Source of the DNA: Callorhinchus milii
Taxonomy: Eukaryota
Direction: 5' to 3'
Length of the DNA stretch: 64,000 nt
Assembly (NCBI RefSeq): GCF_018977255.1
Contig: NW_024704766.1
Location: 5,580,001 to 5,644,000 of the forward strand
Shown here: piece by piece, positions 2,004-59,247 of the stretch
How positions within the stretch are numbered: position 1 is the stretch's first letter
Layout of the letters: every line of letters starts with the position of its first letter
Program-made: the position numbers and the translations under genes
The notes under the pieces: model-generated
The model's input: only the letters and a program-made list of their open reading frames with translations
Databases searched by the model: none
Told to the model about the DNA's origin: nothing

Positions 2004-2035
2004 GGCCCCGCGCTCTGGGCCTCCTCAGAGCTCAC

Positions 2036-2130
2036 CTCCCGGAGGCGCCTCAGCTCCTAACGACTCCCCTCGCGTCGCCTCTCTCTCTCTCTCCCTCCCT
2101 CCCTCCCGCGAGGAAGCGCCGCCGCGCCGG
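2036..2130 (-). other. sc5d: Probable non-coding exon 1 of sc5d copy A
   Basis: Donor GAG|gtgag at 2035-2031 on the edge of a CpG island, just downstream of the CCAAT cluster. The 5' end is approximate. Confidence 0.6.
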
Positions 2131-2545
2131 TTACTAAGGGGACGGACACCTCCTCCCAACCGCCACCGACGCCGCGGGCCCTCAGCCCAACTGCCAATCA
2201 CCCGCCACCCCGCCAATCCCCTTCGCGCTCTCCCGCCCCGCACCCAATCACGAGCGCGGATTCCGCGTGACGCGAAGATTAGGGCGGGCCTGTTGCCAAA
2301 CAGCCAATCCGAGCCGGCGAAGGGAGGGGGGGGCGGGGGCTGGCACGCTGCGCTGTGATTGGTCAGAACCGCGTTCCGCCAGGTCACCTGCTCTGCGCTG
2401 ATTGGCTGCCAGCTGTAGCCTGACGCTCACGTCACATCACATCAGTGCACAGCGATGGAAATTTCCAATGCACGTCACGCACTGGTGGATTTAAAGGGGC
2501 AGTCCATGTGGGGGAGGGGGGCAAAGGTCACACCCCAACAACAAC
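2130..2545 (-). promoter_or_regulatory. sc5d CpG-island promoter with NF-Y, Sp1 and SRE-like sites
   Basis: CCAAT/ATTGG at 2194, 2213, 2244, 2304, 2358 and 2401; several GC boxes; SRE-like ATCACCCGCCAC (2197), TCACGTCAC (2427) and GTCACACCCCAAC (2527). This arrangement is typical of SREBP-regulated sterol genes. Confidence 0.75.
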
Positions 2546-8414: not shown

Positions 8415-8420
8415 TTTATT
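8415..8420 (-). terminator. Candidate polyadenylation signal for the sc5d 3' UTR
   Basis: AATAAA on the minus strand about 1.8 kb past the stop codon, in an AT-rich context. Confidence 0.45.
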
Positions 8421-11400
8421 AAAAAGCAGCACAGTATAGAAGGTAGGATCTCTATCATGCTCACATCTGTAGTCAATCCAATCAACAGTACCATAGACAA
8501 GCCCTAAATTCAATTCCGCAGTCAGGGCCCAAAGGGATCTTAGTTGCTAAAATGAAATTGTATAATCTAGGATTTCAGTGTCCTGTCTGCCACATCAATA
8601 GCCTTAGGATTTGCAAGATTTGCTTTTTAATAATAATAATCCTTGCATTTGATATAGTGCCTTATCACGTCATTGAGATGTCTGAAAGTGCTTCACAGAA
8701 TATATTGTAAAGTGTATTGACTGTATATTTTGTGGCAAAACACGGTACCCAATGAGCACAGCAGTGTCCCACAAACAGTTGTGGATTGAAGGACCACATT
8801 TTTGGGGGAGGGGGCTGAGGGATTACTATTCCCAGAAAGCAACCCGGCAATTGACTAACAACTGGGTTCCCATTTACTGCTAGGTTAACAGAGGCGTATG
8901 GAGTAAAGGAAACTTGTCTAAGATTTTGCCCCGACCGGGAATCGAACCCGGGACCTCTCACTTGCAAGGCGAGCGTGCTAACCACTATACTCCACGGACT
9001 CCACAACTAGGATGAACGTGGTGCTGCCAGTTAAGGGAAGACTGATGAACCACAAGGTCAGGTTTGGCAAAAATAAAACTCTCAACCCCAGCCACTGAAG
9101 GATCCCTACGAAATAACAGTTTCAATTCCTTCATTGGCCAACCGAGAGTGGGCTCTTGTAGTGATTGTTGTTCGATAAGAACTGGGAGCGGTTCCGTGCT
9201 GTGGGTTCTCGCTTGCTCGCCAATCATGGGATAAAAGAACCATCCAAACAGTGCATTTTGAATCATTTCGAGTTACAACCTGGTTTGAAGCCAAGCCCCA
9301 CTGTTCAGCCCCAGTCTGTGACCCAGTGTCCTTCACTATATTTTACTCATGCATTGTGCAATCACAAGTCACTAGATTCATTGAGGCAAGAGGATCATTT
9401 TGTGTGTGTGTGTCTCTCTCTCCACAACTCCCCCACTCATAATCTTGCACATTAGCAGCAATGTTCTAAGAAAAACACATTTATGCATGGTATTAAAGGC
9501 AGCGAACATTGATAGAACAACAACAAAAGATTACTTTTTTGAAGCATTTTTCATGTCATGAGGATGTAAACAGGACAACCTAAGGTACAAATAAAGAAGG
9601 CGGCTTGGACACTGATAAAATAGACAATCAAAAATATTCTGCTCATTAGACATATTGATTACTACTCAGCATACCAGTATTGCATTCGTTATTTTTAAAA
9701 CGTTCTTAAAACACAAAGCACTACCTTTTGACAATCCTATGGCACAGAAAATGCATCCATTAAAAAGTGCTGTTTGAATTTGTCAAAACCACAACAACCA
9801 TTCCCCTCCAACTAACGCAATTCCTAATCTGACACACCATCCACGGTTACATGCTTTAATCAAGAGTACTGAGAATACGATTCAAGTCCACAGCAAGAAT
9901 AAAGTTGTTGACTTTGTAACATGCCGAGTCCCTGACGCTTGGGGCTCTTGCAGATCTTCTGCAATGAATCTGCATGTGATTGTGCATCTGCAAATTCTTT
10001 GCCGAAAATTGCCCTTTCAACAGATCTGCAGAGAGCTGGGTGAACTTAGGCTCCCCAACCTCTCAGGGGAGTGGTAATTTGCTGCTGCTGCTTGTATTGA
10101 TTAGATATCATTGAATTATTAAATATAAGAATGCAGACAGCAGTGGTTTGCCTGGATTATGTATTGTTACAGCGTTTTGTTCAGCGGGTAAAAGACCCCT
10201 CTTTGGAATCAACGAAAGGGAATGATCAGAAATCCCTTGGATTCATTCTTCTTTGGAAGCTTTTCCGTTGGATGTGCTGTCACCAGGGCGGCCACTGCTG
10301 GGAGAGCCGTTCCTCAGTTTGGCTTCTGCTTCCATCTTCCTGAGGTAGTCATGTGGGCCCTTGCCCTCGAACGATGAAGGGTACTTGTAGGAGCCTCCAA
10401 TTCTGTCCCACAGCGTGAAGTACTGCCCGTAATTGTAGTCAAAGAATAGGTGGTGATCGGTGTGGTGGGCTGAGCCATTGATGGAATCTTCGAATAGCTT
10501 TGGGACTCGGTAGTCTCCATCATGGATGGAGATGGTCCAAATATTGACTAAGATATAGAGGCCCAGGTAGACCACTTTGTGCAGTGGGAAGAGGAACGGG
10601 TAGATGTGGTACGGGATGCTCTGCAGAAAGCCGTCCACTGGATGAAAAGCATGACTCGCAAATGGGCTAGCGATCTTCCAAACATGATGGGGCTTGTGGA
10701 AATACTATAGACAATACAAAAAACAATTGGCAATCACCTAAAACTCAATCGTCAAATGGGACCAAAGGACAAGTACATTTCTGAAGCTACTTGAACTACT
10801 TTTTTTAAAACACAAATCACTATAAGTTTCCTGGGTCTCCCGGAAAATCTGAATTGGCTAGCCCAATGATCAATTCATAGAATCATAAATCTTACAGCAC
10901 AGAGGGAAGCCATTCGGCCCATCTTGCCTGTGGCGGCTCTTTGAAAGAATTACCAACTAGCACATAAAACAAATAACTTACATTTTTATAGCACCCCTCA
11001 CGCAGGGCAGTGTCCCAGAGCGCTTGAATTAAGTATTAAAATTCCTGTAACCCCAAATTCATTGTGACCTTATCTTCTTGTCACCGGCCTTAGGTCAAGA
11101 CTATGAGAATTTTTGGCACATGATCCCGCTGTGATGGGGGGGGAAAATACAGGATAACATCAAAGTTGGAAGTCTGGGAGAGAAAAATAACGGCATGTGG
11201 GGTCACTGTCATGGAGATGCCTAAGATGGAGGTTTGATGGAGGGTGTTCACCAGCCCTCCTGGCTACACAACGTGCAGGGCCCAGACCCCACCAAGAGAG
11301 ACAACTCTGTTGTTATTTTGCAACAACATCCACAACCTGCTCTGCTTCAGGCTCATACTACAATATCCAAAGTGCACAGGAAATTAAGGTAATATATGAA

Positions 11401-11937
11401 CAAAAGCAGGAGGGATCAAACTGATGAAACCTGATGATGATAAATGAAACTTGGCTGTTTCTCTCAAGAACAAATCCTTCCTTAGCTTCTCATCTTACTT
11501 CTCTCCTTTTTTGCAAGCTTTTCTCCTGCTCACTTCTAGTATCTCAGAGTATACCCAGACTGATGCAGATGCATTCAAAACAGCGTGAATCAGAACTCAA
11601 CTAAACAAGACATGAGATATCTCAACCACCACTTAAATAAGAGATGGTTCCTCTGACCCAAAAGCTGCTCTATCAATAGTCCACTAGATCGTAGCTCACC
11701 AGGGCAATTGACATGTTCCAGAACTCTTCACTGTGGATACTCAGTACTCAATGTATCTAGCAACTCAATCAAGAAAAGGCCTTTGGCAAAAAGCTTTCCT
11801 CCCTGGGACCAAAATCTGTGACCACTTGGTGGGAAGGTTTCATTGATGACAAATAGTCTGAGCCTTCTCATCACATGTATTGTGTCTAGAGTCATGTGTT
11901 TAGAGCTATGGAGCTATGGAGTCCTGTAGCTCAGTGG

Positions 11938-12320
11938 TTAGAGCATTCGCCTCGCAAGTGAGAGAACCTGGGTTTGATTCTCAGGCAGGGCAAAGGTGGA
12001 GTCCTGTAGCTCAGTGGTTAGAGCACTCGCTTTGCAAGTGTGAGACCTGAGTTCAATTCCAGGCAGGGCGAAACCTTGGGCAAGTTTCCTTACTCCACAT
12101 GCCTAATAATAATCCCTCCAAAAAAAAAAAAACAATAATTAAATTGGTCATTTTCAATCTACGACTGTTTGTGGGACATTGCTGTGCGCAATTGGCTGCC
12201 GCGTTCGCCCACAAATATACAGTCAATTCACTTTACAGTGTGTTCTGTGAAGCGCTTTGGGACGTCCTCCCGACGTGAAAAGCGCTATATCAAATGCAAG
12301 GATTATTATTATTATTAAGG
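11938..12320 (+). mobile_element. tRNA-derived Deu-domain SINE with a duplicated head
   Basis: Two successive ggagtcctgtagctcagtggttagagca heads (A/B boxes), then the body gtgggacattgctgtgcgcaattggctgccgcgtt and a (TTA)n tail. Confidence 0.9.
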
Positions 12321-14090
12321 TAAGTTTCCTAACACCACATGCCTCTGTTCACCTAGTGGTAACTAGGAACCCGTTTGTTAGTCGATTGACGGATTGCTTT
12401 TCCGGGGGTAATAATCCCTTCAAAAACAAATCAATAATAATAATTTGGTCACTCAATGCATGATTGTTTGTGGGACACTGCTGTGCGCAATTGGGTACTG
12501 TGTTTCACCAACAAAATATACAGTGAATTCACTTTACAGTATACTCTGTGAAGCGCTTTGAGACGTCTAAAATGTGATAAGGCGCCATATGAAATGCAAG
12601 GATTATTATTATTATAGTTATTTATATAAGGAACAGCACTTTTACAAAATAAACTCTGACAACTTATAAAATCAATCCAGAGCCTTTCCCAGCTACACTC
12701 CATAAATACACAGCTGTTTAAAGCGATGCACTTCTTACCTTGTAGATGAGTTTGTGGTGAAGGAATCGATGGATCCAGTAGATGCACATGTCGGTAAAGA
12801 AGAGGAAGGAGACCATGCTTAAAATCACCCCAAACCAGCCTGACAGAAGACAAGACAGAAGATTTGGATGAAACCAGGGCAGGATAAACAGCCTGGGTTG
12901 ACAGTTGCACAGGTTTTTGGATGTCTGCTGGGTGCAGCGCTCAGCCAGCGAAAAAGAACTTACATTTTGATAAGTTACATTTTGCAACTGAAAACAACAA
13001 CAACTTCATTCAGTGCTCTTCACACGGGGCAGCATCTCGGAGCACTTAATCACCAAACTCACCAAAAGGAGAATCCTCAATATGGTCGTAGAGCTTGCTG
13101 TATCCGCGGACCTCAGCAAAAAACAGTGCGACGGTTGGAATGCTTATCCATGGCATGGAATGCATGGCACAATGTATCTCACGTCGCACTTGGTTCTACA
13201 GTGAGGAGGGGAAAAGAGAAGGAAAGGGACACTTTACTGCATTTCCTCAAATGATCAAAGAATCTTACAGCACAGAAGGAGGCCATTCAACCCATCATGC
13301 CTGTGCGGCTCTTTGAAAGAGCTACCAACTAGTCCTATTCCTCCGTTCTTTTCCCATAGACCTGCAGATTTTTCTTTTTTAAGTACCGATCCACATATCC
13401 AATTAGTTGCAATTTCTTTTTAAGTAACTTGATTTTCCCCCTCCTTCCAATAAATAACTTAAGGGTGTTGATGAAAGTAAATGTCCAAGGAGGTTTTAAA
13501 TCAGGTTTTGAAGCTAGGGGAGAAGGAGCAAGGTAAAGAGATAGTGGAAAGGAGTTGCAGAGAGCAGTATGTGAAGGTTTGGCAACCCATGGTGGGAATG
13601 ATTAACGAGCAGCACAGTACAGGAGACGTCAAATCTTTTTAAGTAAATAAAGATGCTGCTAAGGTTACAGTTAAAATCGGAAATGGGAAGATTTGATTTT
13701 GTGAGGCACAATGTACGCAGTGTTTACAAGGAAAATAGAGAGAGGATAGATAATGTGTTAAAAGGAAGGTTCAGTCACACCGTCTACCCTGCTTCCACCT
13801 GAAAGATATGACCTGTAATTAATCCCATTAATAATGGGAATTGTGAAAATAACACTAACAGCCTGTGACGGTATCCATGACTTTCCAACAATACATCAGC
13901 TATAAAGATTCTCCTTCTCTCAACACAGAGGAAGTACTGTTGAAACAATGTGCTGATCGAGCCGGTGCTGGTGCTTGTTCCCGTGCTGGAGCCAAAACTC
14001 TTAATCTCATTGCCCTGTTCTCCCACCATTCTTGTGTACAAAGGCTATTTGTCTAATTGTGCAATGGGACGTGACTTCCATAGCCACTGT

Positions 14091-14534
14091 TGCAACATTT
14101 CATTTCATTCCAAGTCCAAATTTATGGCTCATGTCAGTCATTTGTTTCATGGCTGTTTGTGGGACGCTGTTGTGTGCAATTGGAGAGCCGCGTTCGTCAA
14201 CAGATGCACAGTCACTACACTGCACGGTAAATCCCGTGAAGCGTTTCGGGCTTTCCTCACAATGTGAAAGATGTTATACCAAACGCAAGAATTATTATTT
14301 ATTATTATTATGCTCTTTCCGCAACCCCCCTCCCCCCCCCCCCGCCCAAAATAAAATCCACCAGACATCTTCCCGCTGTCCCCCACTTCCAATCTTCTCT
14401 CAGCCGCAGTACCTACCGGCAAGAACTGAGGATGTTTCATCAACCTGTGATCAAAGATGAAATAATAACTAAACATTCCGAACAAAATATAGATGACGGA
14501 AGCTCCCAGGTTAGTGACGATGAGGAGGCTGATT
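14091..14534. repeat. Segmental duplicate, copy 2 (matches 1-445)
   Basis: Identity ends at ...gaggaggctgatt, inside sc5d exon 2. Confidence 0.95.
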
Positions 14535-42600: not shown

Positions 42601-45600
42601 AAGCGCTTTGAGACGTGTCGGCGCTGTATCAAATGCAAGAATTAATATTTATTATTGGGTGGGTGCTCAGGAAAGATGAAACTAAATGGGTTGAAGGGAC
42701 CTTCTGAATCTATCGAATATACAGATCTGATGAGCATTGGATTCAGTTGTATGACTATCCCAAACAGCAATGCAGTCTGTTACACTGGTGGTCGATTAAC
42801 TCTTTAGGTACAACCACTGGTTTGATGGCATGGCGCTCATGCACCAGTTCAGAATTGCCGAGGGCAGCGTCACCTACATGAGCAAGTTCCTCCGCAGCGA
42901 ATCGTACAAGACCAACAGCGCCTACAACCGCATCATGGTGTCAGAGTTTGGAACGCTTGCCATGCCAGACCCCTGCAAGAGCATCTTCGAACGCTTTATG
43001 AGTCGATTTGAAATGTTAAGTACGTTCAGTACCCCATTGCTCTCTAAACGCATCGTTCTTTGACGCCGCATGAAAGATTAAAGGATGTTTTCTGATAACA
43101 CTTTTGTTTTGTTTAAAGAACCGACTGACAACGACAATGTGAACTTTGTCCTGTACAAAGGTGACTACTATGTGAGCACTGAGACTAATTTCATGCATAA
43201 AGTCAACCCGAATACCCTTGAAACAGGAGAGAAGGTAAGCTTGACTCAATTGCTTGCTCCTCTTTGACTTGCTCTGCTGGTACCAAGTGGATTGATTGAC
43301 TTTGTGAGCAATTCTTGACTTTCAAAAGCCTTTACGGTCTCTCCTCTGCCTAGTTCTCGTCCAGCTCCATTCCCCAGCCCCCACTCTCTGATCCAGGAGT
43401 ACAGCTCATTCCTCAATGCCTTTCCCCCAAAAAACTGTAACCTTCTGGAACCCTCTTCCAAAATCCTTTCTCTCCCTCCTTCTTTAAAACCCTCCGAAAA
43501 ACTTATCCTTTCTGTTTTCTCACTCGGTGATTGCTATCATATGCTAAGGAGTGAGATCAAGAGACATTTTTTCACACTGGAATCTGGAATTCTCCCTCTT
43601 TCCCAAAGTCTGTGGATACAGGATCTGATCAAAATTTTCAAGACTGAGGTGGATAGATTTTGTTAGGTCAGGGATATAAGGCAAAGGTAATTGGAGTTGA
43701 GGTACGGATCATCCATAATTTAATAGAATGGCGGAACAGGCTTGAGGGGCTGAATGACCTTCTCCCGTTCCTATGTTCCTGTTCAGCACTTTGTGAAAGG
43801 TGCTTATCTAAGCTGTTGGCAAACGAAGGCTTCTGATTATATTCCATTGAGTGTTTTTCCTCAGAAACCCAAGGTGAAACACCGCTTTAGCTCCAATTCT
43901 CTCAAAAATTGTGAAAAACAAGTACAGTTCAATGCAATAGATATAACATTTAAAAATAGTTTCTTACATAATACTGAAGGATTTGGCTTTTTTGACATTT
44001 TTAGTTTAAACAGATGTGTTTCTGTTGACGTGGTTTCATTATTTTGTGATTTTTGGCCTCAGGATATCAGAGCCAATTTTCAGACCAAGTGAGCTGTCAG
44101 GCTTTGCTGTTTATGCCTTAACCTTCTGGAGGCCAGGAGCCTGGATCTAACAAAGGAGTGGGTGAGGTGGGAGGACATCTCAAAGCACTTCATAGAATTT
44201 TACTGTAAACTGTAGTGACCGTATTTGTAATAACAGCAACAAGTTACATTTATAGAGAGCTCTTTACGCAGGGTATCATCCCGGAGCACTTGAGACTTGT
44301 AGGCGAGGAATGGTAAAGAACAGGGAATTGGAATTAGCTCCAGTGGAGGAACAAGAACCTACACAAACACTGAAGTGAATGATCTCTTTGTCTTATAGCA
44401 GCCCCAGTGCTATCCTGCCTCAGCAAACAGTCTGGCGCTTTATTAATGCACGTTGTAAATAAATTGTGGCATTGGTTTGTCTGTGCTCCTAGGTTGACTG
44501 GAGCAAATACATTGCAGTAAATGGAGCAACAGCCCATCCACATTATGACCCTGATGGAACTAGCTACAACATGGGCAATTCATACGGCAAAAATGGTATG
44601 TTTATAATAATAATAATAATCCTACATTTATTATAGCATCTCTCAAAGCGCTTCACAGGAAATACTGTAAAGTGAATTGACTGTATATGTTGTGGGTGAA
44701 ACGCGGCAGCCAATTGCGCACAGCAGCGTCCCACAAACTCATAATACTCCCTCAATTTTATATTTTGAGGGATCATGCCTCCAGAAAGCGATCCACCAAT
44801 CGAATAACAACCGGGTTCCTACTTACTGCAAGGTAAACAGAGGCGTATTCAGTAAGGAAACTTGCCTAAGGTTTCGTCCCGCCCAAATTGAACCCGTGTT
44901 TTCTCGCTTGCGAGACCACTATGCTACAGAACTCTCATCATATAATATACAGCATAAAGGAATATTTAAATCACTGAGAGGACTTCCAGGCAACCCTACT
45001 CTTGCATTATAATTTGCAACATCTTCTACTTCCTCAAGATCCTCAATTTCCAGCCAGTGTAAAAAGGCTGGAAATCGAAGTCATGAAACAAAGAAAGTTC
45101 ACTGCCTTGTAATAGTGACAAACACAGCATTTCCTTAACAAATACAAACTACAAGATTTCAGGACAAAGGCATTTTATGGGTGCAATGGATCCCATCCTA
45201 TTTGTGTTCGGAGCCCTTGCAAAATGGGAAATTTCCATTCCGATCGGGATTACGACTCTACAAAAGAGGAATTTGCTGAGCCGTAAGTGAGAAAATGAGA
45301 ATCTCTTTGAACTTTAGGCGTAAGTGATGTTTAGTGATTTGCAAGATTATCGTCTTTGAAGCGGCCCTTTGTAAACTTGTCAAAGCAATCGTTTCCAATC
45401 AAGCCACAACGTGCAGTCAGTCGGCTTTGTTCATGTTCGTGGTATTGGCTCATTTGTGAGTGTTATTACCAGATTACATCTGACTCATCAGTTTTTGGCT
45501 TAGCTATCCTCTGCAATGCAGTTCAGCCCAAATCTCTCCTGTTCATTGGTGGAAACTGCTTTGTTTGGAAATTCCAAAAGCTAAATTTATGGACATCTCA

Positions 45601-48600
45601 ATTGTAAAAGGTCTTTCTCAATGAGTATCTTGTTTCCCCATTTGACTCTCCACGAACTCCAATTCATCCAAAGCTCTGCCGTCCACATTCTCTCCCACTC
45701 TGTACACCCAGAACCCTCGTGCTTCCATCGAGCCCTCCGCCTTGCCCACCCCCCTCCCCGCCTTCAAATCCCACCTAAAGACCTCCCGTGCTTACGGTCA
45801 CCTTTCCCTTGGCTCGTTGGCAGACCCTCCACCATTGTGAAATGCTCCTGGACGCTCCCCTGCGTGAAGGGCACTATATAAGTGCATGTTGTTGCTGTTG
45901 TTGCAGGTACGATGTACAACATTATCGAGGTTCCTGTGCAGAAGTCAGAAGATGAGGACAAACTCGAGGGGGCCAGAATTGTGTGTAGTATCCCACCACA
46001 GGATAAGATGCGACCTTCCTATTACCACAGCTTCGGTACGTGTTGACTGCTTGTAGCTAAGTTTAGAGAATGCTCGGAGTTATGTCTTAATTCGCTGAGA
46101 AAATTGGACTCAATATTTTTGCAGCCTGAAATACATTTCTATATTAGGTTCATAATGTGTATCACAGGGCTTTATTTTTAAAATTGACTGAGGACTCAGG
46201 CTTTAACCATAACCAATTTCACAAAGCGTTACCAGAGAGGCGAATAATTCATGTGTGTTGCCTTGCCACACAACTCAAATGCAATTAAAAGTCACATTGC
46301 ATTTTCCAAGCAAAACAAGTCACTGTGGAGCCCTGTAGCTCAGTGGATTTGCCTCGCAAGTGAGGGGACACGGGTTCAATTCCCAGGCAAAACCTTAGGC
46401 AAGTTTCCTTACTGAATACACCTCTGTTTAACTCGCAGTAAGTAGGAAGTTGTTAGTCCATTGGCAGATGGATTTTGCGGGGCTAATAATGCCTCCAAAA
46501 GTCACTCAATCCACGAATATTGTTGGACGCTGCTGTGGGCAATTGGCTGCAGCATTTCACCCACAAAATATACAGTCAATTCACTTTACAATACATACTG
46601 TGAAGCGCTTTGAGACGTCTTGAAGACATGATAAGACGCTGTATCAAATTATTATTATTGAATCGTAAGGGGTCGACTGTTTTCAGCTCTGTACCTTTTT
46701 TAGANTTTTTTTTGACGCTGCACAGCACTGCACCAATCAGAAAGCGGCATTAACTCTTCACGTGCTCTCCATAACAGGAATGTCCAAAAACTACATCATC
46801 TTCATTGAGCAACCGTTGAAGATTAATATCATGAAAATTCTCACAGCCAAGTTAAGAGGAAAAAGCTTGAGCTCGGCGCTCACTTGGGAACCAGAGACCA
46901 ACACCGTTATCCACGTGGCTCATAAACACACGGGGCAGGTACTTTACTGACCCTTTTCACCTCTAAAGTAATAACAACTTGGTCACTCAATCCACGGCTG
47001 TTTGTGGTGACGCTGCTGTGCGCAATTGGCTGCTGCGTTTCTCCCACAAAATATACAGTCAATTCACTTTACAGTATATCCTGTGAAGCGCTTTGAGACG
47101 TCTCAATGACGTGATAAGGTGGTATATCAAATGCAAGGATTATTTTTTTATTATTACAAAATACAGTCACCATGCTTCACAGTGAAGCCTATTTTAGATG
47201 TCCTCCTGACATGAAAGATGTTATTTAAATGTAAGCATTATTATTATATCTGTTAAATCGAATTTTTAACACAGGGCGAAAGAAATGGACTGAATAGACC
47301 ATTGGAAATTTAAGTTTGCTGAAGTCGAGGCTTGTAAGATACTTAACCCCAAGCCTTGGCTTGGTCAGTCGGAGGCACCCTATTTCGGATGAGACATTAA
47401 GCTCAGATGGTACATTAAGGATCCTATGACAGTATTTACAAGGAGAAGGGAGTTCTCCATGTGGAAGACTGGTACACAATGATTCTACAATGATCTAAAA
47501 CTCCGCCGCCCGCATACTCGCCCGTGCTAAACTTCATACCCATGTCACACCAGTTCTAGCCGGGCTCCACTAGCTCTCGATCGCCAAACGGATCGATTTC
47601 AAAATCCTCACGCTCGTTTTCAAGCCCCTTCACGCCCTGGCACCTCCCTGCCTCTCCGACCTGCTTACTTACCCCCCAAAACCACTACCCTCTGCCTCCG
47701 CTCGACTGGCTCCGGCCTCCTGCATGTCCCTCGTGCCCTCCGTTTCACCAATGGTGGCCACGGTTTCAGCCACTGCGCCCCGAAACTCTGGAACACTCTC
47801 CCGCTATCCCTCGACCTTGCCCCTTCCTTCCCCATTTTCAGGTCGCGCCTGAAGACAACAACAACAAACAGCAAATTACATTTGTGTAGCGCCTTTCACG
47901 TCAGGAGGACGATCTTCCAATTCGACCGTGCCTACGGTCACCTCCCCCCACCGGCTCGGTGTTGTGCCCTGCCACTGTCAAGCGCTTTGCGACGCTGCCC
48001 TGCATGAGGGTCGCTGTGTAAATGCAAATTGTAGTTGTTGTTGTGCACTCTCATTTCCATGGTTTGAATAGAATAAAAGCCAGAGGCAGAATGAATGTGT
48101 AAAGTATAATTTAGGGCTTCCTGCCTCATGTTATTTGGATGCTGGAAGTGAAATGGCTTAACTCCAGCATTATGAGCAAAGGCATGGAAGTATTCACTGG
48201 TTCACATGAAGCAATAACAGATTAACTGTCCAAAACACTGGCAAGGATTGAATTATTTTGGTGACACTGTAAATTGCCATTTTGTTTCAGATATGGATAA
48301 CATAACAACAACAACAACAACAAGATTCCATTTATAGAGCGTCTTTCACGTCGGGAGAACGTCCCAAGGCGCTGTACAGTTGGGTCAGGACCCGAGCATT
48401 GGGGGGAAATGGTCAGGGTGAGGGGAGGGAAGGGAGGGAGCGAGGAGGGGGTAGAGAGTCGAGAGGGGAGCTGAAGGCACGGTCAAAGAGAAAGGTCTTG
48501 AGACCGACCTTGAAGGAGGAAAGGGAGGAGGCGGCGAAGGCACTGGGGGATAGAGTTCCAGAGTCATAACATAACATAACATAACATAACATAACATAAC

Positions 48601-51600
48601 ATAACATAACATAACATAACATAACATGCAGGAGCAAGAGTAGGCCATTCGGCCCTTCGAGCCTGCCCCGCCATTCAATCATGGCTGATCTTCTAAAATA
48701 ATAAAGAAGACTGTGAATGAATAAATCAGTGTGTTTTGACAGACTGATTAACCCTGCAATTAAGGCCTGTTTGAATTATTAACCAGGGTTTATTTGAAAA
48801 TTTCTTTGCAGATACTTCCTGTGAAATATTACTCCAAACCGCTTACAACTTTCCACCAGATCAACGCCTTTGAAGACAATGGATTTATTGTCTTCGATCT
48901 TTGCAGTTTCGACGACGGAAATATTGTGCACACTTTAACTATGCAAAACCTGCACAAATCTGGAGAGGCACTGGACGAGGCAACCATTTGACTTCTTCTT
49001 TTGATTGGTTTGAATGTTAACCCTGCAAGCCACAGAGGGTAGGGTGGTCCTAGGTGGACAAGCTCCGGGAAAGCTTGCCAGACAGTGCTTTCAATGGTTA
49101 GCTGGTTAGACTCCAGCAGTTACCCCCAACGCACACTCTGGGCTTCCCCAAAAACCTTGGTTCTTGCCAACCTGCGCTTAATACTTTCCAAAATTAGGTT
49201 AAGCGGATGCATCCCTCCAGAGAGAGAGAGAGGGGGAGAGAGCGCATTCCATTCCAACAATCTCTCTCTAGGATTTCCATGTGTAGGAGGGATGTCTGGA
49301 AATCTCAGCTTCATTTGGAAACTCTTAAGCAACAATGATGGATTTCCGCGTGTGTCAGACACCCGGCTGACCCCACCCAACAAAAAAATACTTGGAAGCA
49401 ACAATTTGAATTTATGTAGCGCACTTCACACAGAATAATGCTTCAGAGTTCTTTATATTGGCGGTGTGGACACTGAGTATTGGAGGAGGGGAGGGGGGAG
49501 TGGGGGAGAGAAACACTGACAGAGACAGATACTGAGGGGAGGGGTCAGCAGGGTTGAGTTTCCAAAGGTTAGGGGCGTAGAATTGGAAAGTTTGACCACT
49601 GATGGTGGTGCGTGTAGAGTTGGGAAACGTGTAGCAAGTCTGAGTTAGTGGTGGGAGCAGAGGAGTGGAGTAGGAGAGACGTTGTCACAATATGTTGTCA
49701 TATTAAATGGTTACTGATCTGTAAAATATGTGGGGTTGGGAAGGCATTATTTTGCAGTTCCGAGATGCGTCCTAATGCTTTCGAATTTATTTTGTCTTTC
49801 AGCTGTACAACACAATTCCCAAGCCAACCCCGATCAGGTTTGTTTTACCGTTGAGCATCAAATCAGACACACCGATTGAGCAGAACCTGAACACTTTGCC
49901 TTACAGCACTGCCGTTGCAATCAGAAAAGCTGATGGAAAAGTATGTTTGTAGTTAAACAACAACAACAATTTGCACTTACATAGCACCCTCCACCAGGGA
50001 GCGTCTCAGAGTGCTTAACGGTAGCGGAGCCTGACTCCGATCCGGGGGTGGTGTGAGCAGGTAGCTGTAAGCGCGGTCGAAGAGGAAGGTTTTCAGGCAG
50101 GACTTGAAAAATGGGAGAGAGGGGGCAAGGTGGAGGGATTGAGGGAGAGCGTTCCAGAGTTTTGGGGCTTAATGGCTGAAAGTGCGACCTCCGATGGTGA
50201 GGCGGAGGGTGCGAGGGACGAGCAGGAGCTGGTGCCAGTTCTGCTGAGGCACCGCGGGTGGATTGGGGAGTCAGGAGGTCGGAGAAGGTGAGAGGTGCCA
50301 GGGAGTGAAGGGATTTGAACACGAGTGAGCATCTTGAAGTCGATCCGTTTGGTGATGGGGAGCCAGTGGAGCCTGGGCCAGAACTGGGGAGATGGGGGTT
50401 AATTCAATGCAGAGGCGCCATTTACTCACCGAGTATCATTCCCCGGTGGGACAACATAGTCGCATGAAATATTTGGGGAGTTGTTTGTTTATGGTTAATT
50501 CACTACCAAAGACAGTACTTGATCTCACAGTACACGATACAAAAGGCAATCCACTTTAAGATTGCACCATGATCCTTGTTTTTATGCATTATTAGTTTTA
50601 GTAGGTCCTTCAAAACAAAAATAAATAGACTGGTCGCTTAATTGCTGCTGCGTTTCCCCCACAAAATAAAGAATCAATTCACTTTACTGTAACCTTTGAG
50701 ATGTCTCAACAAATGATGGGGCACTATATCTAACGCAAGGATTATTATTATTATTATTATTATTATTATCAAACTCCGAGAAGGATGGGTGAAGTGCGGT
50801 GAAGAGGAACCTATTGATTTTGTTCCCGCAGATCTGGTGCAAGTCCGAGAACCTATACGATGCTGATATGATGCATGAAGTCAACCTGGAGTTCCCACAG
50901 ATTAACTACAAATCGTACAACACAAAAAAATACACTTTCCTCTATGGCTGCGGACTAAGCAGTTTGATTCCGACTTCTCTCCTAAAGCTGGATGTCAACA
51001 CAAAGGAACTGAAGGTGTGAATGTTAGTCTTCCAGCCTGTCGGGATATGGCGCCTCGCAACTGGAAACAAACTCCTCGGGAAGTAAAATCCATCTCCTCC
51101 AGGCAGCCGTGTGTGATCCACACTGTTCCTTTAAAATGTTTTAAGATATCATTAATGTCTCTTAGCATAGTGGTTAGAGCGCTCTCCTCACAAGCGAGAG
51201 GACCCGGGTTCGATTCCAGGGCGGGGTGAAACCATAGGCAGGTTTCCTTACTCCACACACCTTACCAGCAGTAAGTAGGAACCTGGTTGTTAGTCGATTG
51301 GTGGATTGTTTCCTGGAGTTAATAATCCCTCAAAAAAAAATTTCAGATTGGTCACTCAAAGATTGGTCACTCAATCCACGACTGTTTGTGGGACACTGCT
51401 GTGCGCAATTGGCTGCTGTGTGGAAAGTCAATGCACTTTACATTATATTCTGTGAAGCGCTTTGAGACGACATCTCAATGATGTGATAAGGCACTATATC
51501 AAATGCAAGGATTTTTATTAGAATTATAGTCCTACATGAAAGGCGCTATATAAACTCACACTCTTGCAAAACACGACCCCACTTTCCAGATAACCATTTC

Positions 51601-52896
51601 CTTGGGGAAAATGCTTGTTCCTTCAGCGTAGTTTCCACCGGGTCTCCAAAGTGCAGCGCTGTTTGTGGTTTCTTCACTGAATCTCTCTGATCTTCTCAGG
51701 TGTGGAAGGAGGAAGGCTACTACCCCTCAGAGCCTATCTTTGTTCCGTCTCCTCAAGGCACCGAAGAAGATGACGGGGTGATCTTATCCACAGTGCTTTC
51801 ACCTAACCAGGTAACTGGAAACCAACTTAGAATCACAGAATCATGTGAAGTCCTGTAGCTCAGTGGTTAGAGCACTCGCCTCGCAAGCGAGACACCTGGG
51901 TTCAATTCCAGGCAGGGTGAATCCTTGGGCAAGTTTTGTTACTCCACACGCCTGATAATAATCGCTCCATAAAACAAAACAATAATAAATTGGTCATTTT
52001 CGATCCACGACTGTTTGTGGGACACTGCTGTGCGCAATTGGCTGCTGCATTTTGCCCACAATATACGGTCAATTCACTTTACAATGTATTCTGTGAAGCG
52101 CTTTGAGACGTCTAGAAGAGTGAAAAACGCTATATCAAATGCAAGGATTATTATTATTATTAATCCTACAACACAAAAAGCAGCCATTTGGCCCATTGTG
52201 CCTGTGCCGGCTCTTTGAAAGAGCTACCAACTAGTCCCACTCCCCCATAGTTCTTGCACATTTAATTCAGATTGGAGAGGATACTAGCAAATAACAGTTA
52301 AATCCGGGTTAAATCCATTTATGATGCCTTACCCTTTCCCTTTAAATCCATCTTCGTACAATACAGTCAGTTCGCAACCCCAAAAATACACAGTCACTTC
52401 ATTTGGTAGCAACCCCCTGTGAAAAGTTTCAGAATTATAGGCAAATAGAAGGACATAGAAACATAGGAATGGGAGGAGGCCATTCAGCCTCTTGAGCCTG
52501 CCCCACCATTCATGGCTGATCTGTACCTCAACTCCAATCACCCGCTCGCTTGCCCTATATCCCTTAATACCCCCTGACCTAACAAATTTCTATCTATCTC
52601 CGTCTTGAAGAGAGATCTTTTCTCCTCTCTTGCTGTCACGAATCGCGATACGTTGTCTCTGTGATCCATTCCACGTCCCCAATTGCTAACATCATGAATC
52701 GTAATTATTCTCAAACTGGGATTTCTCTCTCTCTCTCTCTATCTGTCTCTCTCTCTCTATAAACATCACTCTGTTGCCTTGTCAGGACAAGAACTTCCTG
52801 CTTGTGCTGGACGCAAAGAGCTTCACTGAGGTTAGCAGGGCCGAGGTACCCATCCAGATTCCCTTCGGATTTCATGGAGTCTTCACCCAGCGCTAG
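32898..52896 (+). CDS. bco2: Beta-carotene 9',10'-oxygenase; exons 32898-32937, 42066-42269, 42808-43019, 43119-43234, 44493-44595, 45907-46035, 46778-46938, 48812-48979, 49803-49940, 50832-51014, 51700-51810, 52786-52896
   Basis: Carotenoid-oxygenase motifs [38 protein letters not shown] and PSEPIFVP, plus four Fe-ligand histidines (TAHPH, YYHSF, FHQIN, GFHG). Exon 1 is less certain, and there is a 1-nt phase conflict at exon 2/3. AATAAA at 53705. Confidence 0.93.
34790..36820 (+). mobile_element. Degenerate L2-clade LINE with reverse transcriptase remnant in bco2 intron 1
   Basis: [45 protein letters not shown] and [15 protein letters not shown], broken by frameshifts; (TTG)n tails. Confidence 0.93.
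38143..38465 (+). mobile_element. Full-length young SINE
   Basis: Same structure as above. Other family copies lie at about 8630-9003(-), 28095-28480(-), 32163-32470(+), 42298-42655(+), 44605-44935(-), 46325-46660(+), 51165-51520(+), 51846-52160(+), 56505-56870(+), 59605-59935(+) and 62790-63150(+), plus many headless fragments. Confidence 0.92.
38550..39390 (-). mobile_element. L2 LINE 3' fragment
   Basis: [15 protein letters not shown] and [11 protein letters not shown] remnants with the shared 3' tail. Confidence 0.85.
39555..39950 (-). mobile_element. Young L2 3' end with four 45-bp G-rich units
   Basis: aaatggtcagggtgagg... recurs at 39654, 39699, 39744 and 39789; nearly identical to 40476-40780. 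Confidence 0.9.
40476..41135 (-). mobile_element. Young 5'-truncated L2 with ORF2 C-terminus and two 45-bp units
   Basis: [39 protein letters not shown]...[10 protein letters not shown]. Confidence 0.92.
43545..43782 (+). mobile_element. CR1-clade LINE 3' end
   Basis: ggaatctggaattctctc...tttcaagactgaggtggatagatttt...aggcttgaggggctgaatgacct...cctatgttcct. Related CR1 ends are at about 4410, 7480, 10876, 13260, 21900, 34203, 52165, 52455 and 57210. Confidence 0.8.
48303..48563 (-). mobile_element. Young L2 3' end with one 45-bp unit, abutting a CR1 end that has a (CATAA)n tail at 48565-48627
   Basis: Same sequence family as 39555-39950. Confidence 0.88.
49020..49235 (+). repeat. Unclassified dispersed repeat of about 200 bp (other copies 15245-15450 minus, 58230-58440 plus)
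   Basis: Shared core ggaaagcttgccagacag...ggttagactccagcagttaccccaacgcacac...gccaacctgcgctt...aattaggt-aagcggatgc. Confidence 0.8.
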
Positions 52897-53359
52897 AGCC
52901 AATCGAGGCGCTCTGCTTATGCCTGGATCTCACAACGTTTCAATTACAACTCAACTAACGTTTCTGCCTGTACTGAGGGAAATGACAAGATCAAATCCGT
53001 ACAGTTAACCTTACTCTATCATGATTCATTATTCAGGTTGTGTGTTAAGTGTAAATGTCGAACTACATCTAGGCTTTTGGATGACCCAAGAACCAAATGA
53101 TGGTGTTCGCAAGCTGGTAAGAGGGTCTAGGGGAGAGATCCATAAGCAGCAATCACCGTCAGTTGAGTAATGATCCCAGTTATTAATTGCTTATTAACGC
53201 TTGTGCAGAAATATACCAGTCTTCAAATAGGTAATTAAAGACCACGCTTTATATTCAGTTGCTTTATATGGCCATTGGCTACAGGGCATACATACTTAAT
53301 AGGTTTAGCAAAACGAAGTAACTAGAGCTTGATAATGAGTTTGCCATCAATATGAGAGC

Positions 53360-53620
53360 CATGGCTGACGTTCCAGTGAAGTGCTGAGGGGGAGCGAAGC
53401 ATTGTCGGAGGTGCCATCCTTTAGGACCAGACGTTAAACCGAGATCCCTTCTGCGCCTGTTCAGGTGGACGTTAAAGATCCCGAATCAAAGAGAGAAAGG
53501 AGTGTCTGACTGGCCAATAGTCCTCATTATATTTGTCTGCGTATCGTGATTGTGGGCAAAGTGCCTACAATACACAGTCACTACATTTGACAGCAGTTGG
53601 CTGTCAAGGTTTTTGCTGTA
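53360..53620 (+). mobile_element. Old SacSINE1/AmnSINE1-like Deu-domain SINE remnant in the bco2 3' UTR
   Basis: ctgagggggagcgaagcattgtcggaggtgccatcctt...gacgttaaaccgag...caggtggacgttaaagatccc resembles the DeuSINE core as recalled. Similar remnants lie at about 7210-7360, 47360-47480 and 54720-54980. Confidence 0.7.
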
Positions 53621-54039
53621 TAATAATTTGAGATAATCATTCCATTATTTCTACCTTTTATACAATATTTGTATCTTGTCAGTTAAAATGTCACACTGTT
53701 TGTAAATAAAAGCTGTATAAAATACCCACACGATTTCTTGCTCTCGTCTTCCACAGGAAGAGAGATAACATTGACCGGAAACTATCATTTTTTCAATCAC
53801 TGAAATGAAGAGCATTTGCTGAGGGAGGGAAAGCAACTCGCGAGCTCTGCTTATCCATTGCATTCGTGAACCAAACTCCCAGGTCTAACTGAAGAGTGAG
53901 GATTTGTTTTCTGATAGGAAGCATCTGGTATCACCCCAGTTGTCCACAGTTGGAGTTGGAAGCTTACTGTGTGAGGCGCTGTGAGCTGTCTATGTGATCC
54001 GCTGTATATCCGCACTGATCACATCTCCGAGTCCTTGAT

Positions 54040-57000
54040 TCATGCACTGGCCTTGTGTATTGAAACATATACAACGTCTTGGTAGTTGTCCATTGGCTCA
54101 TTCTGCTCGGAGCCTCTACTCAGGTTCTGAATGCATGCGTAGGTGATCTCTTCGCTGTCACTCAGTGCCGAGGCAGGGGTTGTGTTGTACTTTTGTGACA
54201 TGGAGTCTGCCGTTTCATTACTAAAGCACTCTGTCACCCCGGACTGCTGAACCTGCTGATGTATATGGCAGAAACAGTGTATGAGAGTCCCGTAGCCTTG
54301 TGGTTAGAGCGTTCTCCTCACAAGGAAGAGGACCCGGGTTTGAGCAAACCAATATTTCCCCCGATCAATCTCTACAGACCATCTAGCAGTATCTATCAAT
54401 CAATTGATTGATCAATCAATATGATCAACCAACCAATCAATTAATCAATCGAGAAGCTTTGAGGAGTGAAGGAACATTGAATATCATATTGTCTACAGGC
54501 ATTGTGGAGAGTGAGACTGGCTTCCTAGTTGAGATGGAGGGGAACAGTCAGCAAGTTCCAAGTTTTTTTTTAAACACAATTAATCTCCCTTTATTTAAAA
54601 TGCCCGGCTCATTTGGTACCACCAAGTTCAGATTTTGAGCTCCTTTAACACTTCCGCACAATACTGATGGGTGGGGTGGTGGGGAAGGGGAGAGGGATGG
54701 GTGGGGGAGACATTGCATTTCATAGGAATCACCCTAAACATGAATCTGAGACTCTGACCGTGCCTGTACAGGTGGACATCGAAGATACCCAAGACCTGAT
54801 TGGATTGGAAGAAGAGAAGGTGTGTCATTTCCTGATGCGTTGACCAACAACCTCTCCGATAAATTGAACAGTGACTTCGCGGTTGTGAGTGGGATGTTTG
54901 CTACGTTCAAAATAGCTGTTGCTTTTTCCTACCAAAAGCACAGTCACTCCATCAGGCAGTGATTACTGTGAAGAGCTTTGAAGAGCTTTTAGCTTATCTA
55001 ACTGAGCCCTGGTCAATCCGGAGGTTGTGCAAGGCCCTAGAGGCAGTGTGGTTGAGAGCAACAAGGATGATCCGCAGAGATGGAAAAGGGGAAGGTATGA
55101 GAATTGGTTAATACTTTGTGGATTCCTGTAGCGTAGTGGTTAGAACACTCGCCTCGCAGAGGAACTGGACTCAATCCCAGGACAGGGTGAAACCTTAGGC
55201 AATTTGCTTTACGCATACACCTCTAATTTACCTAGCAATAAGTAGGAACCCTTATTAATAGGATTATTATTATCATTATTACTTCAGAAACTTGTTGAAA
55301 CGTGAAAAACTAACCTGAGACTCAAAGCTAACAGTCTGGTCTGAAGATCCCCTGGAAAGGAAAGGAAGGAGTTATTTTAGGTTCAGCAAAATGAGTTGAG
55401 CTACATAGTAATAATAATAATACTCCTTCCATTTGATATAGCGCCATATCAGGTCTGCGATACGTCTCAAAGCGCTTCACCGAATAAACTGTAAAGTGAA
55501 TTGACTGTTTTTTGTGGGCGAAACGTAGACTTGCCTTGGGACGTCCTCCCGGCGTGAAAGGTGCTTTACAAAGGCACCTCCCTACCCCTCCAAATACCCC
55601 AAATTGGTTGCTGTGTGTGTGTGTGAGGAGCATTGATAGCACCGATTAGCTGCCGCACTCACCTGTACAACTATTCGGTATCTCGGTCTTCACTTCCCAT
55701 TGACTTTACTTTATAAAAGTAGTGAGACATACAGTTTGTGGGGAGGGACGTTGCTGTGCGCAATTGGCTGCCGTGACTTGCCCACAAAATACACAGGTCA
55801 CTCTGCAGTATATTCTGTGAAGCGCTTTGAGACGTCTCTACGATGTGATAATGTGCTGTATCAAATACAAGGATTCTTCTTTGCATTGTCGCAAAGAGCT
55901 TCACGGGTGTTTATTTTGTGTGAATGACACTGTCTGTAAGTGCAAATTTTTATTGAGTTATCGATCTCAGTTGGGTGGGGGGGTGTGGGGTGGGGGGAGA
56001 ATGGTGCTGCAGTAAAGTTTTTCTGATTAACCTCAGTGTCTTCTCCACTCTCCATCCTTCTGTAAAAGGCAGAGATTGAGAATGTTTTAGCCCAATTATT
56101 TTCCGAGCGTGGTGACCCCGAGATACGAGTCGTGTTGACAATGGAAGATGGCTCTTGGCCCTCCGCAAACAGAAGCGAAATTTCCCACAAGCTGTGATTT
56201 ACTCTATAAACCCCGTCCCACCAGTAACCAGAGTCAGTGGGAAGCTCTAGATCTGGAGAGAGAGCAGAGCATAACAATTCGCCACACCTTAGCAACAGCG
56301 ACCCCTGTTGCTGAGAAAGATAGCGAGAAGGTGGATTTCTCTGCAGTCCAATGTCAGGACTGGAGCTGATCTGACTCCATGTCCTGGAAAGTGCAGCAAC
56401 TTTGACAACTCCGACAAAATCCCTCACTGTAACTTCAACAGGAACCGTCTGTCAAGTGCTTCGAGATGCCTCGATGTTATAGGGGCTGTGTACGGAACCC
56501 GTAGTGGAGTCCTGTAGCTCCTTGGTTAGAAGAGCACTCGACTCGCAAGCGAGAGGCCCCGGGTTCAATTCCCAGCCGGGCGGGGAGAAACGTTGGGCAA
56601 GTTTCCTTACTCCACGCACCTCTCTTTGCCTAGCACTAAGTAGGAACACGGTTGTTAATTGATTGGCGGATCGATTTCTGGAGGTAATAACATTTTGGTC
56701 ATTCGATCCACGACTGTTTATAGGACTCGTGCTGTGCACAATATGCTGCTGAGTTTTGTCCACAAAATACGCCATCAATCCACTTTATAGTATATTCTGT
56801 GAAGCGCTTTGAGACGTCTCAACGACATGATAAGGCACTGTATCAAATGCAAGGGTTATCATTATAATTAACCAAAGATCAGCACAGCCAATGAATCTAC
56901 CGACTGTGAAATAAAACTCGACCAGAGGTGAAATGTTTCTCTTATTAGAGCGAAAGTTTAAAGCTTTTGAAATATCACTCGAATCCTACCTTGACGCTCG

Positions 57001-59247
57001 CACCAGATTCCTGATGTTTGGCAGCGAATGAATGAAAAAAACTGTCGGGAGCAGCACAAAGACTAACAGAAGAATAACGCTGATTTCTACAATCTTCAGG
57101 TCACGCGATGTTGTCTTATTTGAATGACCTGCGATAAACAAAAGTAGGATTGGAGTCAGAGACAGCACACACAAGTCACGACTTATTGATAACCCTGAGA
57201 TTTCATACAATGTATTTCACTGCAAACAAATCTGCGGAAAGACTATTTCAGTGAGCGAGTAGTAAACATATGGAACAGGCTCCCGAGGGAGACAGATGGT
57301 GGAAGCAGAAAGTTTCGATTCTTTCAAGAACAAATGAGATAGATTTCTGTTAGGAAATAATATCTGAGGGATGCAGTAGATAGTTTGGGACATAAATGTA
57401 CCACGATGGTAGAAGGCAAACTGGATGGACTTGTTTCATCTAGCAAATTCTTATGCTCTTCTGTTGGGAGGATGTCTCAAACCGCCTCACGGGATTCATG
57501 TAATGTGTAGTGACTGGTCTTTGCAGGTAAACTTACATGGGCAAATCCCAGAAATTGGCTATTTGTCCCATCGGGTCTGTGCTGGTGTTTTTCCCCGACT
57601 TGAGCTCCCTGGTGAGATTCCGCTCTCCTGCTCGCTCTCCCCCTCCCCGCACCTCCCCCCGCCCCAGCCCACGCCTTCCGATATTCCTCCTCTTCAAGTA
57701 TCTGTCAGATACTAATCCACGAATCACACAGTCACCACTCTTCACAGTAAATGCCGTGGAGCACTTTGAGATGCCTTCTGCATGTAAAAAGGCATAGTAA
57801 ATGGTATTTCAATTCACTTTACATCAGGATATTCTGTGAAGCGCTTTGAGATGTCTTGACACTGCGATAAGGTGCTATGTTGAATGCAAGGATTATTATT
57901 ATTTACACGGAACAGTGTAAGTACAGACCTGTGATGTCCTCGGTCACAGTGGATAGAGTGGCAGGAATCCAGGTGGTAAACTTGTCATCTGAAGGCAAAT
58001 CAAACTATTAAACAAAATTCACATTCCTCTCCTCCCCCACCCCCCTGCACACACACACACACACGCGCCACCACCAACCCACCCCTATCAGGCATAATCA
58101 TTTATTCCAACATTCAAAAAAATTCCTCTTCCAGATGAATCTAAGTCTGTCCGTCCGTCCATTCGTCCGTCTGTCTGGCCACTGCCCGTCCAACCTGTGC
58201 CTAATACACTCCAGAATTAGGTGAGCACATGCATTCCTCCAGTGAGACAAGCAGCGGGAAAGCTTGGCCAGACAGCGCTCCCAATGGCAAGCTCTGTGGG
58301 TTTAACTGGTTAGACTCTAGCAGTTACCCCAACGCACACTCTGGGGTCCCCAAAAGCCTTGGCTCTCGCCAACCTGCGCTTAAAATTTTCGGAATTAGGT
58401 AAGCGGAATGCATCCTTCCAGGGAGAGAGAGAGAGCGAGAGAGAGCGAATGCTGCCTGGACCGCCCCACCATTGGCGGTTGGACCTTCAGCCTCTCCGCT
58501 CCCACCCTTTGGAACTTCATACCACAGTCCCTTCGCCTCGCCCCCTCCTTTGCCGCCTTCAAAGGCCTGTCTCAAGTCTCTCCTCTTTGGTCATCCTGTC
58601 CCCTACCCTGCTCGCCCTCCACTCTTCCCTGACCCTGACTGTCCAGCGCTTTGGGAGATCCTCCCGATGTGTAGATGTCATTTGTTGTTGTTGTTTGGAG
58701 ACGGGGTGGGGTGGGGCGGGAGAGAGAGTTGCCCACCTTGCTTGACGCTGAGAGTCACGACGTTCTGATAATGAGCTGCTCCCTGCTTGATCTTACAGTG
58801 ATAATTGCCGCTGTCGTTTAGCTCCAGGGACCTGATGTACAGGGAAGCGTTTCCTGCCCAGACATTGTTCGAGGCAAAGGAGAATCTCTCGCTCTTCGGA
58901 GGGGAAAGGCAATTGTAAACTACTCCACCGCTGAACATCATTATCTGCAAGAAAATAGGATCGAAGGCTTTCATTAATAGTCCTCGCATTCCAACAGAGA
59001 CCATCGCGCATCGGGAGCTTAACCATTCCCCCCCCAACATTTTCTCTCCAACACTTTACACATAATAATAACAGTGGCTTTTTCTACAACTGCATTCTCA
59101 CCACAGGAGACGTGACGTTTCCAACAAGCATCCATTCGATGTCGAGGTGGTTTTTGGTGTCGACCCCCATGTCAGCCCAACACGGCAACCTCACACCCCT
59201 TCCCTCCACCGCCTGAATCCTCGTGTGGTTCTTAGTCTCCACTACCA
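54040..59247 (-). CDS. CTX-family (CLMP/CAR-like) single V-Ig type I membrane receptor with an ITIM-bearing tail; exons 59102-59247, 58737-58944, 57929-57988, 56990-57128, probably 55315-55351, and 54040-54255; leader exon not identified
   Basis: The V domain is split by a phase-0 intron: ...[10 protein letters not shown]...LDIEWML.../[10 protein letters not shown]...[34 protein letters not shown]. It is followed by a Thr-rich stalk, a TM segment [18 protein letters not shown], and a last exon with ITYACI and VVYVSI. Phases 1/0/1/1/2/0 join in frame. Confidence 0.78.

Follow-up and report, generated by a model that had tools for sequence, protein, structure and literature searches.

A candidate inhibitory receptor on a CAR/CLMP-type V domain

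The window analysed here, 64,000 nt of the genome of Callorhinchus milii (assembly GCF_018977255.1, contig NW_024704766.1, positions 5,580,001 to 5,644,000), carries on its minus strand a gene for a membrane protein with one split V domain, a stalk, a transmembrane (TM) segment and a cytoplasmic tail with two sequences resembling immunoreceptor tyrosine-based inhibitory motifs (ITIMs), 24 residues apart. Judged from its sequence, the product is likely to be an inhibitory receptor that recruits SHP-1 or SHP-2 and is derived from the CAR/CLMP lineage. The original prediction, made from the DNA letters alone, was that an adhesion-type V domain had been coupled to a two-ITIM tail, with no C2 domain, and on this point the sequence, the RefSeq gene model and a contig presumed to be of RNA origin agree. 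The same build recurs across sharks and rays and is thus not a local oddity; the receptor probably forms the braking side of a family of paired receptors in cartilaginous fish.

Gene structure and transcript evidence

The gene consists of seven coding exons (61101–54040, minus strand; all coordinates are those of the window), all with AG/GT borders, and their phases chain into one open reading frame of 288 amino acids (aa). This model is identical to RefSeq XP_007909867.1, isoform X1 of the uncharacterized protein LOC103190787 of Callorhinchus milii. A query with the second V half returned the 287-aa RefSeq isoform X2, identical across the query, which differs from isoform X1 in using the second acceptor of a NAGNAG sequence.

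Exon 1 (61101–61041) starts with ATG, ends at a GT donor in phase 1 and specifies residues 1–20 of both isoforms, a leader and predicted signal peptide with a hydrophobic helix at residues 4–17 in the model. Two half-exons, meeting in phase 0, together encode the V-set domain, whose characteristic motifs lie where the original prediction had put them. Exon 2 (59247–59102, phase 1 to phase 0) carries the B-strand Cys43 and the LDIEW sequence of the C strand (59146–59132), and exon 3 (58944–58737, phase 0 to phase 1), which holds the match to CAR D1, carries AGNASL (58857–58840), DSG.Y.C (58815–58795), the F-strand Cys119 within CKIK, and an additional Cys81. The 60-nt stalk exon and the TM exon follow as described: exon 4 (57988–57929) is Thr-rich and present in both RefSeq isoforms, and exon 5 (57128–56990) encodes the end of the stalk, the TM helix (hydropathy 2.76) and the start of the tail, ending in a phase 2 donor. 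The TM exon ends in phase 2 and the terminal exon is in phase 0, so a further exon is required between them; this is exon 6, a 37-nt cytoplasmic exon (55351–55315). The exon chain given by the original prediction was therefore right in the exons it named, and had overlooked this exon and the leader. Exon 7 (acceptors at 54255 and 54252, stop codon at 54042–54040) does contain both tyrosine motifs, ITYACI (Tyr256, 54147–54130) and VVYVSI (Tyr280, 54075–54058). An open stretch at 55864–56451, with a candidate acceptor near 56252, was considered as a tail exon and rejected; it contains an in-frame stop and is not part of the RefSeq models.

Transcript evidence came from contigs built from four sequencing runs that are presumed to be RNA (no run is on record as such) and that carry no tissue, strand or level. 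A 495-nt contig (run X1, record 3) has letters 1–133 on the TM exon and letters 173–495 on the terminal exon and 3′ untranslated region (UTR). Joining the TM exon, the 37-nt exon and the acceptor at 54252 predicts exactly 495 nt with the terminal exon entered at place 173, as observed, while the acceptor at 54255 predicts 498 nt and skipping of the 37-nt exon 461 nt. Since length and place fit only one model, the TM exon is spliced to the ITIM exon (54252–54040). A second contig of the same run (record 5, 193 nt) spans 59243–59102, ends on the genome at the donor of the first V half and continues for 51 letters, which fit entry into the second half; from this and a matching bin depth of 5.1 we infer the V1–V2 join. 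The terminal exon is also covered in run X2, and no piece from runs X3 and X9 lay on the coding exons among the pieces listed. The joins from the second V half through the stalk to the TM exon rest on the RefSeq model and the relatives, and that of the leader, which lies outside the stretch compared with the contigs, on the gene model and RefSeq. The 3′ UTR reaches at least to 53804 (53804–54039), the contigs extending to 53927 in run X1 (record 3) and to 53804 in run X2 (record 9) and giving neither its strand nor its true end. Transcripts separating the tail from the V and TM exons, a C2 exon in the mRNA and a one-to-one orthologue among described receptors were not found, and the original prediction stands in all three respects.

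Domain organization of the protein

Pfam recognized one V-set stretch only in the whole protein (E 8.3e-12), and the predicted structure comprises a confident V fold, a helix at residues 171–193 and a disordered stalk and tail. Three approaches agree with the earlier claim that no C2 domain lies between the V domain and the TM segment. A tblastn search with shark CLMP and mouse CAR proteins against the 64-kb window gave V matches only, with no C2 match at E<0.5; visual inspection of the 15 open stretches (phase 1 to phase 1, at least 150 nt) in the two introns between the second V half and the TM exon showed nothing Ig-like; and a C2 domain is absent from both RefSeq isoforms. Cys81, in the second half of the V domain, is apparently unpaired and is not seen in the aligned relatives; it could form an inter-chain disulfide.

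The two tail motifs fit the pattern (S/I/V/L)xYxx(I/V/L), a consensus as given in PMC5071834. When the 94-aa tail was shuffled 100,000 times, two or more such loose matches appeared in 1,065 cases. The C-terminus is not of the class I PDZ-binding type, in keeping with the original prediction of no obvious PDZ-binding end; a C-terminal PDZ-binding motif is described for CAR (PMC9866089). Because the protein lacks both the C2 domain and the PDZ-type end, it is not a canonical member of the CAR subgroup of the CTX family (CAR, CLMP, ESAM and BT-IgSF); by sequence, it is a derivative of the CTX/CAR lineage.

Relationship of the V domain to CAR and CLMP

The likeness of the V domain to CLMP, noted from its motifs, was borne out in that CAR and CLMP are its closest kin by sequence and profile searches, and CAR by fold. 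The best sequence match among PDB entries is CAR D1 (E 2.9e-9), CAR is also the best fold match, and a family profile search of structures ranked CAR (E 3e-29) before JAML (3e-10) and MPZL1 (3e-8). CLMP is not among the solved-structure matches and is hence unranked there, and neither TIGIT nor PD-1 occurs among the 60 listed of 61 profile matches at E<=1e-5. On these searches, the V domain is not of nectin/PVR or CD28 type.

A complete CLMP-type gene (V1, V2, two C2 halves, TM and a PDZ-type end) was located by tblastn at 2.51 Mb of the same contig, 3.1 Mb from the receptor gene. A CLMP profile gives 182 bits on this true CLMP and 90.3 on the receptor gene, so that the receptor gene was rejected as the CLMP orthologue. 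The true CLMP and the receptor have the same phase-0 split point in their V domains, and a CAR-like gene on contig C4 has the donor of its first V half at the matching point. The split had been taken as a mark of the CTX family; it is indeed shared with these genes, but is not exclusive to that family, as the V domain of the P0/MPZ family is also split across exons. The family assignment therefore rests on the sequence and structure searches.

A V-domain phylogeny, a kind of check that the original prediction had suggested, placed the receptor weakly. In a tree of 39 V domains, in which the CLMP or CAR labels of unnamed rows were assigned in the analysis and TIGIT, PD-1, MPZL1, VSIG4 and JAML were left out, the receptor falls on the CLMP side of a starred branch (96/92), and a starred clade (99/95) whose branching tracks the species unites 11 elasmobranch rows. 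The receptor joins this shark and ray clade weakly (58/31) and on a long branch (length 1.06, against 0.19 for C. milii CLMP), and its grouping with shark CLMP was not rejected by the approximately unbiased test (p-AU 0.058). V-domain identity is 37–44% to family members and 35% to C. milii CLMP.

Relatives in sharks, rays and other fish

Relatives were collected from a representative search (150 listed of 303 matches) and a profile search (13 of 6,505 candidates); a single-sequence search, with 512 candidates, recovered one match, the protein itself. Proteins with one V domain and no C2 were found in at least 11 elasmobranch species (Heptranchias, Mustelus, Heterodontus, Scyliorhinus, Chiloscyllium, Narcine, two Mobula, Hemitrygon, Hypanus and Pristis; the Pristis gene model stops before the TM segment), and are labeled in the databases as 'uncharacterized', 'CAR homolog' or 'CLMP'. 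All seven ITIM-form elasmobranch proteins screened have two to five ITIMs in the tail.

The tail of the C. milii receptor aligns with those of Heptranchias and Heterodontus at scores reached by none of 500 shuffles each, and the 24-residue spacing of the tyrosines is also found in both. Outside the ITIM consensus itself, including the flanks of the first motif, 9 of 29 positions match in Heptranchias and 8 of 29 in Heterodontus, where about 1.7 would be expected (0 and 3 of 20,000 shuffles, respectively), making the tail evidence of kinship that is independent of the V tree. In Mustelus and Scyliorhinus the flanks are kept (5/29 and 6/29) and the first tyrosine is lost, in Chiloscyllium the second is lost, and the tails of rays end differently. 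In the reverse direction, the top match of a catshark member in the C. milii genome is the receptor gene (E 3.3e-7), with CLMP at 0.0016. C-K-x-K occurs in 14 of the 16 V-containing proteins of the family and D-I-E-W in all of them, the latter count being in part a product of selection because the domains were excised with that motif.

More broadly, 44 of the 150 matches listed have a D/E-I-E-W motif. Those that also have a TM segment and no C2 start are, among the matches listed, the query and proteins of chondrichthyans, lungfish, gar and sturgeon, several motif-bearing fragments that lack a TM segment being left unnamed in this tally. C2-less proteins of CAR/CLMP type are thus present in basal bony fish, the sturgeon form having two tandem V domains. 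Monophyly of all V-only proteins, with lungfish, gar and sturgeon included, was neither demonstrated nor rejected (p-AU 0.33). A hagfish protein labeled CLMP has a V-C2-TM arrangement of CAR/CLMP type and a tail with several tyrosines that ends in an ITIM-like motif, and is a possible parallel in jawless fish.

Short-tailed twins in two sharks

The original prediction also proposed a search for paralogues as activating partners, which turned up candidates in two sharks and was blank in the C. milii genome. In 2 of the 11 elasmobranch species, Heptranchias and Scyliorhinus, a second gene on the same record as the ITIM form encodes a protein with a short, ITIM-less tail. Within each species, the V domains of the two forms are 97% and 98% identical, against 59–60% between the species. 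Past the V domain, from stalk to TM, the short forms of the two species share homology (z 32, 0/300 shuffles) and are unrelated to the ITIM form of the other species, and a clade of the short forms in the V tree was rejected (p-AU 4e-65). On these results, taken together, the pair would be older than the split between these sharks, with the V domains rematched later. Both short forms have an Arg or Lys at the outer edge of the TM segment, a possible likeness to receptors coupled to FcR-gamma, and their tails have no immunoreceptor tyrosine-based activation motif (ITAM). Gene conversion that keeps V exons alike is described for paired Ceacams (PMC5112662).

Possible function and alternative explanations

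Under the favored reading, that of an inhibitory receptor of CAR/CLMP descent, a gene of CLMP/CAR type on the same chromosome would have been duplicated, and the copy, still before the split between chimaeras and sharks, would have acquired a tyrosine-repeat tail and shed its C2 domain and PDZ tail. The V domain would bind a partner of the CTX family on another cell (itself, CLMP or CAR), using the face with the kept D-I-E and K-x-K residues; these are common to the receptor, CAR and CLMP, and the charged residues presumably belong to the GFCC′ interface of CAR. It is through the GFCC′ face that CAR binds both itself and the adenovirus fibre (PMC9866089). Phosphorylation of Tyr256 and Tyr280 by Src-family kinases would then create docking sites for the two SH2 domains of SHP-1 or SHP-2, and activation would be damped. 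In some sharks, the twin, its V domain matched by gene conversion, may serve as a decoy or as an activating counterpart where microbes take advantage of the inhibitory form.

Several observations weigh against this reading. The strict ITIM consensus ends in Leu or Val, and both motifs here end in Ile and thus satisfy only the loose form. The TM segment, at about residues 171–193, is atypical in containing Glu173 and Pro186. The exact ITIM pair was seen in only two of the seven relatives screened, the tail is less similar to those of the other five (5 to 183 of 500 shuffles), and the relatives are gene predictions known as proteins only. The look-alikes of lungfish, gar and sturgeon have no ITIM by the same pattern. 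On the receptor V, the profile scores of CLMP (90.3 bits) and of the shark and ray family (86.9) tie, and to this are added the loose placement in the tree, the tolerated grouping with shark CLMP and the circular element in the D-I-E-W count. Finally, no twin was detected in C. milii by a DNA search, two protein searches and a motif scan of 5.52–5.76 Mb.

An unlikely alternative is that the protein, like PZR/MPZL1, PECAM-1 or G6b, serves adhesion signaling in epithelium, endothelium or thrombocytes, its tail recruiting SHP-2 to tune contact, migration or clotting rather than to brake immune cells. In favor of this, CAR-type residues are retained in the V domain, C. milii has one copy of the gene, and a single V domain with two ITIMs that bind SHP-2 is the plan of PZR. 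CAR and CLMP themselves are described as junctional proteins of non-immune cells (PMC9866089). However, the V domain has diverged fast (1.06 vs 0.19), the number of ITIMs varies and the shark twins have been homogenized, traits described as typical of receptors under pathogen pressure (PMC5112662). That the protein is a chimaera-specific derivative of CLMP, which reached the V-TM-ITIM plan independently of the shark and ray family, appears very unlikely. The values of 58/31 and p-AU 0.058 for the V domain, and a stalk and TM segment without clear likeness to the shark forms, would allow it, but the tail resembles those of two sharks in flanks and spacing more than chance would allow, the receptor gene is the top genome match of a shark member, the V domain is nearer to the family than to the chimaera's own CLMP, and the Chiloscyllium records that carry the family gene and CLMP have one and the same length (93,515,396 bp). 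We regard a diverged orthologue of a named receptor (TIGIT, PD-1/CD28HL3, MPZL1, VSIG4 or JAML) as scarcely credible. An Atlas feature search placed a 'TIGIT-like' cluster on top, with JAML on top for the Heptranchias relative (0.96 each), and genes for JAML and MPZL lie in the matching human region; the Atlas scores, however, are nearly flat (0.94–0.96) over many receptors with a V domain, a TM segment and tyrosines, CAR is far ahead of JAML and MPZL1 in the sequence and fold searches, and TIGIT and PD-1 are missing from the 60 profile matches listed of 61. As for CD28HL3, a family member with an ITIM and a switch motif (ITIM/ITSM), a CD28-family survey reports that it was not found in Chondrichthyes and gives it other neighbors (PMC11599192).

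A bolder version of the inhibitory-receptor reading, which we advance only tentatively and would sooner doubt than accept in full, is that of an unnamed paired immune-receptor family, over 400 million years old, on the CAR/CLMP virus-receptor fold. Its inhibitory member would read CTX-family adhesion proteins as 'self', while the twin, joined to an activating adaptor through its TM arginine and rematched by gene conversion independently in different shark lineages, would counter microbes that bind this face. The family would survive in changed form in lungfish, gar and sturgeon, and would have been lost in tetrapods, and its twin lost in the chimaera.

Genomic neighborhood

Within the window, an RPE65-family gene lies tail to tail with the receptor gene and a fatty-acid-hydroxylase-family gene is at the left end; beyond the window there are a BTB gene and two genes for ligand-gated channels. 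We take these neighbors to be BCO2, SC5D, ZBTB16 and HTR3A/B, which presumably all map to human 11q23-24, like CLMP. The BCO2-like gene occupies about 42809–53723 on the plus strand, with an AATAAA at 53705 on that strand. The receptor strand has no AATAAA before 53300, and contigs of run X1 continue across the gap, so the 3′ ends of the two genes may abut or overlap.

About 11 kb to the left of the window (C25:5569188–5580000, C25 being the contig of the window) is 99% identical to positions 2942–14090 of the window, within 1–14534, and includes the last exon of the SC5D-like gene; either the segment was duplicated in tandem recently or the assembly is at fault here. At C25:5.66–5.76 Mb, the ZBTB16-like gene (plus strand) and the two HTR3-like genes (minus strand) face each other; their human counterparts are, we presume, same-strand neighbors. 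A second-half V exon of CTX/A33-like appearance was also seen on the small scaffold C724 (8690–8878, minus strand), matching both queries weakly.

Comparison with known receptors and significance

It is an old idea that early vertebrate immune receptors may have come from the CTX/CAR family, whose members in jawed vertebrates are mostly junction proteins. The receptor, whose best sequence and fold matches lie with CLMP and CAR, shares with them the phase-0 split point of the V domain and the motifs D-I-E-W and C-K-x-K, and with CLMP also the contig; it differs in having a stalk in place of C2, an unrelated TM segment, an ITIM tail without a class I PDZ end, and a much longer branch. With MPZL1/PZR, a binder of SHP-2, it has in common a single V domain and two ITIMs at a similar tyrosine spacing, but its V domain is nearer CAR than MPZL1 (E 3e-29 vs 3e-8), and the stalk and the shark twins set it apart. 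The likeness to TIGIT, which comes from the nectin/PVR lineage (PMC9520664), lies in the union of an inhibitory tail with a V domain from an adhesion family; here, the V domain is of CAR/CLMP lineage and encoded by two exons, and there are two ITIM-like motifs instead of the immunoglobulin tail tyrosine (ITT) motif and ITIM of TIGIT. CEACAM1/CEACAM3 and the paired Ceacams of Xenopus are inhibitory and activating adhesion members with converted V exons (PMC5112662), and the shark twins suggest the same, in a different Ig lineage and with a twin that has no ITAM but only basic residues at the outer TM edge. The lamprey protein NICIP, of a jawless fish, recruits SHP-1/2 through two ITIM tyrosines 23 residues apart (PMC5071834), close to the 24 found here, but has both V and C2 domains. 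Mouse VSIG4 offers a precedent for C2 loss in a CTX-related protein, although it is a complement receptor and PMC9520664 places kinase sites rather than ITIMs in its tail. By analogy, the receptor is likely to work in the manner of TIGIT, PZR or CEACAM1.

No paper describing LOC103190787 or its family was found, with supplements (those of PMC11599192 and of genome papers) and subscription papers falling outside the scope of the search; the portion of the CD28-family survey consulted does not describe the receptor gene (PMC11599192). Both the architecture of a single V domain with two ITIMs and the pattern of paired receptors are already well known. The database labels of the family would need correction, because its members carry the names 'CLMP', 'CAR homolog' and 'uncharacterized'. 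A single shark would provide a test pair, two proteins whose V domains are two to three residues apart and whose tails differ. If the proposal is true, cartilaginous fish made an inhibitory receptor out of a CAR/CLMP-type domain and paired it with a twin of activating type, paralleling the origin of TIGIT from the nectins and the pairing of CEACAM1 with CEACAM3.

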